A stretch of DNA of 64,000 nt from a virus (lineage: Duplodnaviria > Caudoviricetes). Each line of letters opens with the position of its first letter. The first letter of the stretch is position 1. Shown piece by piece: positions 37,371 through 43,005 of this stretch. The translations under genes were made by a program, and so were the position numbers. The notes beneath the pieces are model-generated. The model saw only the letters and a program-made list of their open reading frames with translations. It was not told the origin of the DNA and searched no databases. The stretch is taken from IMG/VR virus record IMGVR_UViG_2895374923_000001, positions 1 through 64,000 of that record; one strand, given 5' to 3'.

Positions 37371-37721
37371 CGTTGCTACTCGTTGCTACTCGTTGCCACT
37401 CGTTGCAGGAGACGAGGCTGATCGAGAGCGAAGCAATGTAACGCAGGACAACGCAAGCAGATGACTGAAGATGCATGAAGATCAGAGATAGTCAGAGATC
37501 GCCTGGTAGCAAGGCAGTCCTGGGCAGTTTTAGGCACCCGGACGGTGCGAAGGCTCCTCTGAACTGGTAGGGAACAGTAGGGAACAGAAGGAATCGTGTC
37601 GGCCTGGGGTTTCATGACAGCCCGCCATTCCTAAGCAGTGATCTCCGATGTGCACTTCTTCGCACACCCCAGGCAGTCCAGGAGATCCATGGGAGTCCCT
37701 AGAGTCTGTATAGGTCTGTAG
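37371..37721. repeat. Array of distinct 10-bp-period tandem repeat blocks in the xis/repressor intergenic region
   Basis: For example CGTTGCTACT x4, GGAACAGTAG x3, (A/T)(G/A)(A/G)GTCTGTA x2. Confidence 0.8.
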
Positions 37722-37825
37722 AAGACTTGCGGCCATGCATGATGAAAGCTACCTTCTCATGCATGAGCTGTCCGCGATGTGCGCACCCTTGGCGCGTTCT
37801 GGACGCTCCTAACCCCACTCTGGAG

Positions 37826-38401
37826 ATGCTCTTGACCGAGTTCGCCGACTGGCTCAGCACGACCGCGAGGGGCCTCGGCTACCGCACGGACGCCCAGCTC
37901 GCTGCCGCCCTTGAAGTGCAGCAATCCACTGTCACGCGGTGGCGCAAGGGCAACCAGCCGCAGATCAAGCACCTGATCGAGATGGCCCGCCTCTTCCAGA
38001 TGCCGGTGGCTCCCCTGCTTGTCCTGGCAGGCCACGTGCCGGCGGACCTCTTGGGGGGTGTAGAGCCTGCTGGGCTGCCAATGACGGAAAGTGTGCGACG
38101 GATTCGTGATGCGCCGCTGACTGACCTGCAGAAGAAGGCGTTGACCGTCTACTGGGACAAACGTCTCGCTGACGAGCGCCAGAAGTTGTCATATCTCATC
38201 GACTGGATCGCGGCCGGTGACAGCACGTCTCGGCAAGAGGCAGGTGACTCGCTGTTGGACCTGATCACGCAGGGGGTCCGATCGCAGGCAGCCACTCACC
38301 TCATGGAACTGATCGAGACCCTTGTCGCAATCGAAGCGACGCCGCGAAAGCGACGCCGCCGCACAGTCCGCCAGGACTCCCCCGACGACATACCGGAGTA
38401 G
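37826..38401 (+). CDS. XRE-family repressor of element 1 (start uncertain; 37739 or 37762 possible)
   Basis: TDAQLAAALEVQQSTVTRWRKG HTH; directly upstream of int. Confidence 0.8.
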   Translation: MLLTEFADWLSTTARGLGYRTDAQLAAALEVQQSTVTRWRKGNQPQIKHLIEMARLFQMPVAPLLVLAGHVPADLLGGVEPAGLPMTESVRRIRDAPLTDLQKKALTVYWDKRLADERQKLSYLIDWIAAGDSTSRQEAGDSLLDLITQGVRSQAATHLMELIETLVAIEATPRKRRRRTVRQDSPDDIPE

Positions 38402-38403
38402 CC

Positions 38404-39708
38404 ATGGCCGAGAGGAAGCCACGGACCCGAGGAAACCGCGAAGGCCGCCCCTACCAGCGCGCCTCTGACGGTCTATGGGTAGCGACCGTCTACCTACCGA
38501 ACGGCCGAAGGAAACCCATCTACGGCAAGACCCGCGCGGAAGCAGTCAGCAAGAAGAAGACGGCCGAGAAGGAGATCGCTGCGGGCCAGCCGGTCACTGC
38601 GGGGCGTACGGACACCCTCGCCCACTACCTGCTGAAGACCTGGGTGGGCGTGACCCTCCCACAGCGCGTCGCCGCCGGCCGACTGGCACCGAGCACACTC
38701 GACAGCTACCGCGAGAAGGTCGACCTGCACATCGTCCCGCACCTGGGCAAGGTCAAGCTGGTCGATCTTTCCACGAGACACATCCGGACCTGGTTACTGG
38801 AGTTGGCCGACAAGCCCAGCGGCAACCGGCGCCGCAAGCTCCGGCCGGGCGAGAAGAAGCTCCCCGAGCCCGAGAAGCTGTCGGCCCGGACTATCGCCTA
38901 CTGTCACGCCGTGCTGCGCAAGGCGCTCGCCGACGCGGTGGATGACGAGATCATCGGGAAGAACGTGCTCACTCTGGTGGACGCGCCCTCGGTGGACAAG
39001 AAGGAGTTCAAGCCCCTCACCAAGGAGGAGGCTGCACGCTTCCTGGTCGAGGCCGCGCATGACCGGCTGTGGGTGTACTGGCTAGTGCTTCTGGCCTTGG
39101 GCCTGCGCCGCGGCGAGGGACTCGGAATGCGGTGGTCGCACATCGACCTCGACGCGGGCTCCGTACGCCTGGAGAAGTCAGTTCAGCGGCTGCGCGGCGA
39201 GAAGAACGAAGCAACGGGCAGACGGAGCGGCCAACTGGTCGAGAAGCGGCTGAAGACCGTCGCAAGCAAGGCGACCGTGGCCATCCCCTCGACTGCTCTC
39301 CAAGCGTTGAAGGACCTGCATGAGACGCAGGAGGCCGACCGCGAGGGAGCCGACGTATGGATTGATCCCGACCTCGTCTTCTGTACCAGCCTCGGCACCC
39401 CCCTGGAGCCTCGCAACGTCAACCGGGCCTGGTACGCGCTGTGCAAGCGCGCAGACCTGCGTCAGGGGGATGACGAGGACGGGCTGAGGGTGCATGACCT
39501 CCGGCACGCCTGTGCCAGCTTCTTGTTCGCGAAGGGCAACGACATCAAGACGATCCAGAGTGTGCTGCGTCATGCCCGCCAGTCGACCACCAGCGATCTT
39601 TACGTGCACATCTTCGACGAGGTGAAGCGGAAGGCCGCCAAGACCATGGACAGCGTGCTGGTGGATCTCACGCAACAGCGCGCGAAGCGCAGGAAGGCGG
39701 CCTCATGA
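38404..39708 (+). CDS. int: Tyrosine integrase of element 1 (intact)
   Basis: N-terminal arm-binding domain, GLRRGE, HDLRH, LRHA, DLY. Confidence 0.95.
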   Translation: MAERKPRTRGNREGRPYQRASDGLWVATVYLPNGRRKPIYGKTRAEAVSKKKTAEKEIAAGQPVTAGRTDTLAHYLLKTWVGVTLPQRVAAGRLAPSTLDSYREKVDLHIVPHLGKVKLVDLSTRHIRTWLLELADKPSGNRRRKLRPGEKKLPEPEKLSARTIAYCHAVLRKALADAVDDEIIGKNVLTLVDAPSVDKKEFKPLTKEEAARFLVEAAHDRLWVYWLVLLALGLRRGEGLGMRWSHIDLDAGSVRLEKSVQRLRGEKNEATGRRSGQLVEKRLKTVASKATVAIPSTALQALKDLHETQEADREGADVWIDPDLVFCTSLGTPLEPRNVNRAWYALCKRADLRQGDDEDGLRVHDLRHACASFLFAKGNDIKTIQSVLRHARQSTTSDLYVHIFDEVKRKAAKTMDSVLVDLTQQRAKRRKAAS

Positions 39709-39808
39709 ATCGCCTCGTCCAAGATCAAACGCACGCGTTGCTACACACGTTGCTACATACGCGATCTTGGCATTCTGCGCGATCAAGGAAGTGCCTGGTC
39801 AGTACAAG

Positions 39809-39882
39809 CGCGCCCTGCAGGATTCGAACCTGCGACCGTCGGATTAGAAGTCCGATGCTCTATCCAGCTGAGCTAAGGGCGC
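39809..39882 (-). tRNA. tRNA-Arg (anticodon TCT)
   Basis: GCGCCCTTAGCTCAGCTGGATAGAGCATCGGACTTCTAATCCGACGGTCGCAGGTTCGAATCCTGCAGGGCGCG forms a cloverleaf. Confidence 0.97.
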
Positions 39883-41551: not shown

Positions 41552-41771
41552 CCCTTACCTGAAGGCAATACCGCCGTAGCCTTTCTCTTTAAGTTTTAAC
41601 TACGCAATTCGGCGCGAATTCCACAATTCGGCGCGACCGTTGTCACGCTCGGCGATGCCATCGTCCGGGATCGTGAGGATTGACAGGTAACTGTAAGGAA
41701 CGGTCCGTTCACAGAGGGCGCGGCGAGGCGTAGTCTCATCCAATCGCGTCTCGCTGTGGGAATCGAGATCG

Positions 41772-42197
41772 GTGATCGGGAATCTCGGGGGTCCCGGCCG
41801 GAAGGCAGGAGCAGTGACCCAGAAGCACCACCCTCGGCGCATCCTCAACTGCGCCGCAGCCGTCACGATTGGGGCCCTCATCGTCGAGCTGTACGTAGGC
41901 GTTCTCACACACCGGACCTTTCTGGTCCTCCTGGCGGGGGCAGCCACGATCGTCATCGTGATCGCCCTGCAGTGCCACGCCGATCGCGTCGAGGCCGTCA
42001 CCCGGGAGCAGGCCACGACGATCAAGAAGTACTCGCTCACCCTCGATCGAGTGCTCGACGTGGGCCTGCATGGCGTCGCGTCGGCCCAGGCCGAGGCGCG
42101 CGGGTTCTACGACAGCCCGGGCGTGCACGTCTCCGACAGCCCGATTGATGTGCGGTCGGACACTGGACCGTTCCAGATGCACAACGGGCGCAACTGA
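41772..42197 (+). CDS. Two-TM membrane protein (possible superinfection exclusion)
   Basis: Two hydrophobic helices; located in the lysogeny module. Confidence 0.5.
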   Translation: MIGNLGGPGRKAGAVTQKHHPRRILNCAAAVTIGALIVELYVGVLTHRTFLVLLAGAATIVIVIALQCHADRVEAVTREQATTIKKYSLTLDRVLDVGLHGVASAQAEARGFYDSPGVHVSDSPIDVRSDTGPFQMHNGRN

Positions 42198-42219
42198 CGA
42201 CACGGTGCCGGCCGGGTGT

Positions 42220-42846
42220 TCACTCGCCCGGCTGGCGCCTTTCCCGATCCCGGCGTCGCCGCTCGGCGCGGAGGCGTTCGGCCTCGAAGATCTCGGCCCG
42301 GCGCTCCAGATACTTCTTGATCAGACGCTGCTTGACCTCGTCGGGGATGTCCTCAGCCTCGATCGCCGCGATGTGCCTGTCCTTCGGCAACGCGTCGGGA
42401 ATGACCAGATCGCCCTCGTCCGCCAGGCCGGCCTCAAGGAGCAGCTGAGCCAGCGAGCGACTTTCAACGCGCGCCAATTCTTTGAGGTCGGCGACCGCCT
42501 GGCGCGCCTCGTTCGGCACCAGAGGTAGGGCAACTTCGGCCGAGTCTTGGCGTAGAAGATCTCTCAGGAAATCGGCGGCGTCCGTTCTTCCGGCTTCGGC
42601 AAGTTCCTCGGGCGTGAGCTTCGCAGCTCTCGCCATGTGAGCCAGAGTCGAGGCTGGCGCGATCACCTCTCGTGGAGGCTGGTCCTTGCCCATCGACTGG
42701 TACCCGCGCTCGATGTGGCCCCAATAGTCGGCAGTGATGCCTGCTTGCTCGGCCGCGTCACCCATGGAGAGTTTGGGCCGCAGGCGCTGACGTGCTACTC
42801 GCAGCAGAGCGCCTTCCTTGGTGGACGGCGTGTGCTCGCGGGCCAT
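42220..42846 (-). CDS. CI-like immunity repressor of prophage 2
   Basis: LSMGDAAEQAGITADYWGHIERGY HTH; divergent from cro. Confidence 0.8.
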   Translation of the reverse strand: MAREHTPSTKEGALLRVARQRLRPKLSMGDAAEQAGITADYWGHIERGYQSMGKDQPPREVIAPASTLAHMARAAKLTPEELAEAGRTDAADFLRDLLRQDSAEVALPLVPNEARQAVADLKELARVESRSLAQLLLEAGLADEGDLVIPDALPKDRHIAAIEAEDIPDEVKQRLIKKYLERRAEIFEAERLRAERRRRDRERRQPGE

Positions 42847-42860
42847 GCCCGTCCCCTCAT

Positions 42861-43005
42861 CAGACTTATACAGACCTATATCCGCAGCATAGTGCACTGA
42901 TGCAGCTCGCCAGACAACCCCCTACACCGCCATTCATTCATCACTACAGATCACTACTGAAAAATGCAGGCGAGGTCTGTTGTAGAAGTCTGTATAAGTC
43001 TGTAG
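42861..43005. promoter_or_regulatory. Operator-like TACAGA(C) repeats of the cI/cro switch
   Basis: CAGACTTATACAGAC (42861-42875) is the exact inverse of GTCTGTATAAGTCTG (42988-43002); TCACTACAGA/TCACTACTGA at 42941-42960. Confidence 0.75.

Follow-up and report, generated by a model that had tools for sequence, protein, structure and literature searches.

A direct-repeat operator array in the control regions of two unrelated prophages at one tRNA-Arg(TCT) gene, and its possible role in cross-talk between them

The window analyzed here, a stretch of 64,000 nucleotides (positions 1 to 64,000 of the IMG/VR virus record IMGVR_UViG_2895374923_000001), lies in an 11.4-Mb actinomycete genome and covers two prophages that are integrated side by side at one tRNA-Arg(TCT) gene, prophage 1 in full and prophage 2 with its left end. 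One recognition sequence, an array of GTCTGTA direct repeats, is present in the control regions of these two unrelated, co-resident elements: next to the predicted promoter of the repressor and integrase genes of prophage 1, and on both sides of the cI/cro switch of prophage 2. The array appears to be a native operator of prophage 1, and it is tentatively proposed that this operator is also occupied by the CI-like repressor (CI2) or the Cro protein (Cro2) of prophage 2, the chances of which seem to us to fall a little short of even.

The prophage 1 array was read directly on the plus strand at 37703..37721 and consists of two GTCTGTA units 10 bp apart (AGAGTCTGTA and TAGGTCTGTA). This 19-mer (AGTCTGTATAGGTCTGTAG) is identical at 18 of 19 positions to 42987-43005 of prophage 2 (AGTCTGTATAAGTCTGTAG), and its stretch 37709-37720 is the exact reverse complement of 42869-42880 (TACAGACCTATA). 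Both relations had been claimed in an earlier reading of the DNA from its letters alone (the sequence-only reading), and both were borne out. The 15-mer GTCTGTATARGTCTG has three exact copies in the window (37704+, 42861- and 42988+), where shuffles lead one to expect 0.03, and no exact copies other than these three were found across the genome. With two mismatches allowed, the whole genome yields three matches, as against 18 for a reversed control pattern. All five GTCTGTA heptamers of the window lie inside the three array sites, and the core CTGTA-N5-CTGTA occurs twice genome-wide, in the prophage 1 site and in the cro-proximal site of prophage 2. Between the two intergenic regions, the best 19-mer match is 18/19, whereas the maximum over 300 dinucleotide shuffles is 16. 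The full 10-mer unit TAGGTCTGTA and its 10-bp phasing are common to both prophages and, in 11.4 Mb, confined to these neighbors; the sole other genomic pair of GTCTGT at 10 bp lies in low-complexity DNA on contig C12. The sharing between the two control regions extends to a single 19-bp block. Because GTCTGTATARGTCTG is found only three times and CTGTA-N5-CTGTA only twice in the genome, the 19-mer match is real, being neither a chance likeness nor a host-regulon site. The sequence-only reading had held that a motif widespread in the host genome would point to a host factor, and the genome-wide count places the motif in three places only.

The proteins encoded beside these sites are XRE1, the repressor-like protein of prophage 1 (37826..38401, plus strand; HTH_3), CI2 (42220..42846, minus strand; HTH_31), and Cro2, a protein of 84 amino acids whose gene is divergent from cI2 (43016..43270, plus strand; HTH_3). 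Their recognition helices had been quoted correctly as VQQSTVTRW, ITADYWGHI, and ITQPHVSAI, respectively. No relation beyond a generic helix-turn-helix (HTH) is detectable among the three, and a remote-homology comparison of XRE1 with CI2 (hhalign) found none, with a probability of 0.5%. A regulator shared between the prophages was also considered and rejected, as an all-against-all BLAST of their open reading frames (ORFs) shows no regulator in common: the shared proteins are TerL (49%), a small ORF next to it (57%), and one further, weakly matching pair. TerL and the small ORF, which overlaps the TerL start, are the sole proteins clearly common to both (27574-29272 and 62535-63999).

In prophage 2, a cI-proximal array of two units lies on the minus strand at 42861..42880, 15-34 nt upstream of the cI ATG, and a cro-proximal array of three units lies on the plus strand at 42976..43005. 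The two sets are inverted and ~125 bp apart, with 2-3 units each that abut at exactly 10 bp. A leaderless cro promoter (TTGTAG-17-TAGTGT, 7 nt to the ATG) is plausible, in which the last two units of the cro-proximal array would fill the 17-nt spacer, a position that fits repression of cro. CI2 has no PHROG match and a generic HTH_31 alone in Pfam, and we know of no description of the CI-like repressor family to which it belongs, found here in Streptosporangiaceae genomes. A search of 300 genomes of the same family recovered 14 loci with CI2 homologues, in which the N-terminal ~100 residues are 37-53% identical. In 11 of the 14, the ~50 nt before the cI start contain head-to-tail repeats (2-3) with a 10-bp period, and inverted copies adjoin the Cro2-like gene in the six loci that have one. 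TGCGAAG units are found in L135, L137, and L141, all with the CI helix SEGRWRQI, and the array of L141 is present without a Cro-like partner; TTCTC units are found in L128 and L133, both with the helix T(P/A)EMWGH. Units elsewhere in the family are TACTTTCCT (L131) and ACTTAGCT (L129), and another switch, that of L130, has CTGTA-core arrays. Since this class of array flanks the cI switch in relatives, with a unit that tracks the CI helix, the GTCTGTA arrays at 42861-42880 and 42976-43005 are interpreted as prophage 2's own operators, with CI2 as the most likely binder. Cro2 may be the binder instead, because the Cro2 helix co-varies too. The closest relative of CI2 is P0002 (65% identity, helix SEDYWGH); searches for homologous loci with the single proteins XRE1, Cro2, and P0002 returned little or nothing. 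A second CI2-family repressor is encoded in the same genome (contig C53:589655-589897, L192), with a 10-bp array of two AGTCCGC units upstream and the same switch architecture.

In prophage 1, the XRE1 gene is directly followed on the same strand by that of a tyrosine integrase (int; 38404..39708, plus strand), an arrangement consistent with the operon that had been proposed from the sequence alone. In phage P2, the repressor gene is likewise found upstream of int. The promoter predicted for XRE1-int (37727..37755, plus strand; TTGCGG, 17 nt, TACCTT) would place the array at about -59 to -41 from the transcription start, just upstream of the -35 element. Five XRE1 homologues were usable, from Streptosporangium minutum (G224), Streptosporangium sp. 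KLBMP 9127 (G037), two Nonomuraea (L147 and L149), and one Actinomadura. The helix VQQSTVTRW is exact in G224, G037, L147, and L149, with an overall XRE1 identity of 46-61%, and a promoter-like TTGCGN-17/18-TA(C/G)NNT lies upstream of XRE1 in these four as in the window. Three relatives, in which XRE1 identity is 46-57%, bear an array. In S. minutum it is found at the same place (GACTGTATATAGCTGTG), and its flanks can be aligned with the window; in KLBMP 9127 it is at the same place in the opposite orientation (GTCTGTCTAAGTCTGTC), with units TAAGTCTGTC and CAGGTCTGTC that are 9/10 and 8/10 identical to prophage 2 units; and in Nonomuraea L147 it lies 135 nt further upstream (ATCTGTACGGACCTGTA). 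No array is found upstream of XRE1 in L149. In G224 and G037 the motif is present once per genome, and a CI2-family gene is absent from both (best E-values ~5e-4) as well as from the genome of L147 (none at 1e-6). Because these relatives keep CTGT arrays in genomes without a CI2-family gene, the comparison indicates that the GTCTGTA array has been inherited within the prophage 1 lineage under selection and was not captured from prophage 2. The earlier description of an element that carries a copy of prophage 2's repeat is not supported, given that CTGT-core arrays stand by the same promoter in the CI2-less G224, G037, and Nonomuraea relatives.

The prophage 1 array probably has a binder of its own, and XRE1, by autoregulation, is the leading candidate. 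XRE1 is the sole DNA-binding protein conserved in all these elements, and its helix and the CTGT core are both invariant. In addition, two copies of TAGGGAACA at 37567-37590 (in reverse complement, two copies of CTGTTCCCTA) form a second, inverted array with the same core ~135 bp from the GTCTGTA array, and this pair mirrors the pair of prophage 2, ~125 bp apart. The Xis-like HTH_17 protein (36706-37086) was rejected as a binder, as its conservation does not follow the array; in G037, which has the best array of the relatives, no Xis-like homologue is found in the 2.5 kb upstream. A host factor was also rejected, as genome counts show no other tandem site, even of the CTGTA core at 10-bp spacing. 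The 740-bp gap between the Xis-like gene and XRE1 holds no credible ORF.

In the proposed mechanism, the 19-mer would be an operator array of two directly repeated units, spaced by one helical turn, beside the -35 of the XRE1-int promoter, and it would be an ancestral part of the switch of the prophage 1 lineage with a native binder. The prophage 1 units are letter for letter those of the prophage 2 cI/cro arrays, so that one operator specificity would be common to both prophages, and CI2 (or Cro2) would be bound at the promoter region of XRE1-int in this lysogen. Binding of CI2 or Cro2 to these units is a reasonable prediction, because the units are identical to prophage 2 operators and the motif is unique to three places. 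Cross-talk would follow from the operator specificity that the neighboring prophages have in common, since identical, identically phased units should bind the same protein. It could plausibly run in either direction: should XRE1 be the native binder, the cro promoter spacer of prophage 2 would be occupied by it as well. Furthermore, a site centered near -50 could raise or lower the activity of the XRE1-int promoter, and for this reason the co-induction of prophage 1 with prophage 2, which the sequence-only reading had put forward, is just one of several possible outcomes.

Several observations weigh against a native operator that is bound by XRE1 and shared with prophage 2. The XRE1 helix is invariant, yet the array is absent in L149 and inverted in G037. 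The most consistently enriched words across all five XRE1 upstream regions are ACGCA/TGCGT, which may be XRE1's own operator, the array then being bound by another factor. Covariation does not separate CI2 from Cro2 in most loci, and the samples are small, at five XRE1-family and 14 CI2-family loci. In addition, the promoters of both prophages are predictions that consensus scans did not recover: an E. coli-type promoter scan upstream of XRE1 found nothing (a terminator scan was empty too), and the scan at cro2 gave no match.

The constancy of the XRE1 helix in the face of an array that varies or is missing, together with ACGCA-type words that suit XRE1 better, would also fit an array that acts as a sensor only. 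In that case, prophage 2 CI or Cro would bind and no prophage 1 protein would, and induction of prophage 2 would lower XRE1 and co-induce prophage 1. The identity of the units to prophage 2 operators agrees with this, as does a position around -50, which suits an activator, and there are precedents in P2 Cox activating P4 (PMC3936717) and in an Stx-phage Cro acting on the operator of a co-hosted prophage (bioRxiv 10.1101/2025.01.01.630987). However, the relatives keep the array without a CI2-family gene or a second copy of the motif, which is hard to explain for a purely foreign regulator, and a sensor of this kind is considered unlikely. The ancestry of the array in the XRE1 lineage favors instead a site bound by a prophage 1 factor, to which CI2 and Cro2 do not bind in vivo, such that the likeness would be without regulatory consequence; the CTGTA-core arrays of the L130 switch are in line with this, as the core may be common among these phages. 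This alternative nevertheless appears rather unlikely, given that the full 10-mer TAGGTCTGTA with the same 10-bp phasing is confined in 11.4 Mb to two adjacent prophages, and that a protein would be expected to bind identical DNA at both places unless the context interferes. Chance likeness of AT-rich promoter DNA without function could draw on the nature of both regions, which are AT-rich islands full of short repeats, but it is already disfavored by the shuffle tests, the genome-wide uniqueness, and the conservation in relatives, and is very improbable. Least probable of all is a host regulator that binds GTCTGTA arrays and into which both prophages are plugged. Three Streptosporangium genomes with three GTCTGTA copies each upstream of a gene for an Lrp/AsnC-type regulator would suit such a host factor, but this genome has no other tandem site, even of the 5-mer core at 10-bp spacing, and matches with one or two mismatches are fewer than those of the control.

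Those copies, in the genomes L171, L172, and L175, include two that are 10 bp apart and lie between the genes for the Lrp/AsnC-type regulator and tryptophan 2,3-dioxygenase, at a chromosomal site with no phage connection. In a pattern search of 400 genomes of the family, the matches outside G037 adjoin ordinary chromosomal genes for an AsnC-type regulator, ArsR, a glycosidase, or major facilitator superfamily (MFS) proteins, or lie within an insertion sequence (IS)-like repeat. An exact scan of genome contigs for the 15-mer gave scattered single matches in unrelated, mostly low-GC taxa, the pattern being too short to be informative. An exact 17-mer scan of viral contigs returned two unrelated phage groups and one simple tandem repeat, which were set aside as irrelevant; in these two groups, all copies of the 17-mer share one conserved context, which is coding-like and unannotated.

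Genomes with multiple prophages are mostly treated as sets of independent switches, and to our knowledge the documented cases of direct operator-level coupling between unrelated prophages are few and all enterobacterial. The Cox protein of P2 binds direct-repeat boxes in its own switch and also acts on the unrelated, co-resident P4, coupling derepression (PMC3936717). The present proposal is similar in that a switch protein of one element would act on an unrelated co-resident element, but it involves two complete prophages and predicts binding by a CI-like or Cro-like HTH protein rather than by an excisionase, and the case is known from sequence alone. For recombination directionality factors of the Cox/Apl type, the same motif is expected at the switch and in the attachment (att) arms; GTCTGTA is found at switch sites only, whereas a different block, CGTTGCTAC, is found at both. 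A second precedent is the Cro of an Stx phage, which represses a co-hosted prophage through an operator-like sequence, with experimental support (bioRxiv 10.1101/2025.01.01.630987). Here, too, an operator-like sequence of one prophage's regulator lies in the control region of the other prophage. Unlike the enterobacterial system, in which a palindrome-type site lies by the lytic operon, the present case concerns an actinomycete and a direct-repeat array by a repressor-integrase promoter, with evidence from DNA comparison.

With regard to the form of the operators, P2-type C repressors use non-palindromic direct repeats, which differ between heteroimmune relatives (PMC2995052, PMC1904268), and the sites of 186 Apl are spaced one helical turn apart (PMC7498355). 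Non-palindromic direct repeats are found here as well; no PDB sequence match to P2 C was obtained for the CI2 or XRE1 profile at E<=1. In contrast to P2-type C and 186 Apl, the present arrays consist of 2-3 abutting units with a period of exactly 10 bp and come as two inverted sets ~125 bp apart; as head-to-tail direct repeats at 10 bp, they are unlike the palindromic operators of lambda-type CI and Cro. An operator sequence common to two prophages in one cell resembles the situation of homoimmune prophages; unlike in homoimmunity, the repressors here are unrelated and one 19-bp block is in common. The aspects in which this case differs from the known systems are the host, a Streptosporangiaceae actinomycete that is probably a Nonomuraea to judge from the closest XRE1 relatives, the repressor family without a known description, the involvement of two complete prophages, and a shared site at a repressor-integrase promoter. 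If the proposal of a shared operator is confirmed, operator-level coupling of prophages would be shown in Actinomycetota, and CI2-family operators would be defined as direct-repeat arrays one helical turn apart. The three short sites and three small proteins would also offer a simple test case for coordination or competition of polylysogens at induction.

The GTCTGTA array is one of seven distinct blocks (at least 6-mers) that are repeated at exactly 10 bp in the gap before XRE1 (37371-37721), where none is repeated at 9, 11, or 12 bp. The six further direct-repeat blocks with this exact period lie at 37371..37590 and are CGTTGCTAC (four copies), AACGCA, TGAAGAT, TCAGAGAT, GGCAGT, and TAGGGAACA. 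The four copies of CGTTGCTAC at 10-bp spacing occupy 37371-37410, and two copies at 12-bp spacing are found in each att arm (2536-2557 and 39736-39756). The block probably serves as a site of the integrase arm type or for Xis, and it seems to double as a switch element in the manner of Apl and Cox. Of the seven, GTCTGTA and CGTTGCTAC alone recur elsewhere in the genome, and, apart from CGTTGCTAC, GTCTGTA is the only one that does so as a further tandem copy. That prophage 1 uses the GTCTGTA block to sense the prophage 2 repressor in a form of piggy-back induction, with the six other blocks possibly sensing further phages, is judged distinctly unlikely; a full-size actinomycete prophage would in that case time its repressor and integrase expression, and its induction, by the switch state of a complete neighboring prophage at the same tRNA. 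The idea of an "operator library" was rejected, as the other blocks have no tandem copy elsewhere in the genome and the AGTCCGC units of contig C53 match none of them. A non-coding block with hairpin-like GGAG..CTCC and CCCC..GGGG pairs, conserved between the window, G224, and G037, lies just upstream of the Xis-like gene (~37098-37185). It has no Rfam match and could represent a leader of the leftward operon or a small RNA belonging to it.

The boundary of both prophages is an intact tRNA-Arg(TCT) gene (39808..39882, minus strand; Rfam/tRNA call), the single match of the Rfam scan. Prophage 1, previously termed element 1, occupies 2452-39805 (~37 kb) in the 3' half of this gene, and its far attachment site (2399..2451) is a 53-nt copy of the tRNA 3' half, with 94% identity to 39806-39858. 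The minus-strand genes between the att repeats encode a primase-polymerase, a D5-type helicase, HNH, TerL, portal, major head protein, tape measure, and endolysin, and the plus-strand XRE1 and integrase genes adjoin the tRNA. With its replication, TerL, head, tape measure, and endolysin genes in one contiguous stretch flanked by the att repeats, element 1 is a complete prophage of ~37 kb with virion genes of its own, which corrects its earlier treatment as a small element. Satellites such as phage-inducible chromosomal islands (PICIs) and P4-like elements have no virion structural genes, whereas TerL, portal, major head protein, tape measure, and endolysin are all encoded by element 1. Prophage 2 extends from 39883 to ~99 kb of the contig (~59 kb) in the 5' half of the same tRNA gene, as deduced from a 42-nt copy of the tRNA 5' half at contig C2 99060-99101, outside the window, a fragment at which no tRNA is called. 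The DNA upstream of the intact tRNA gene is the left end of prophage 2, which reads, from the tRNA, GIY-YIG gene, int2, cI2, and cro2. To the left of the att copy at 2399-2451 lies a third tyrosine integrase, apparently split (434-2167), which reaches model position 123/172 in ORF 434-1942 and continues with an integrase-like C-terminal piece in ORF 1973-2167. This split gene suggests that a third element, possibly decayed and truncated by the contig end, stands in tandem at the same tRNA.

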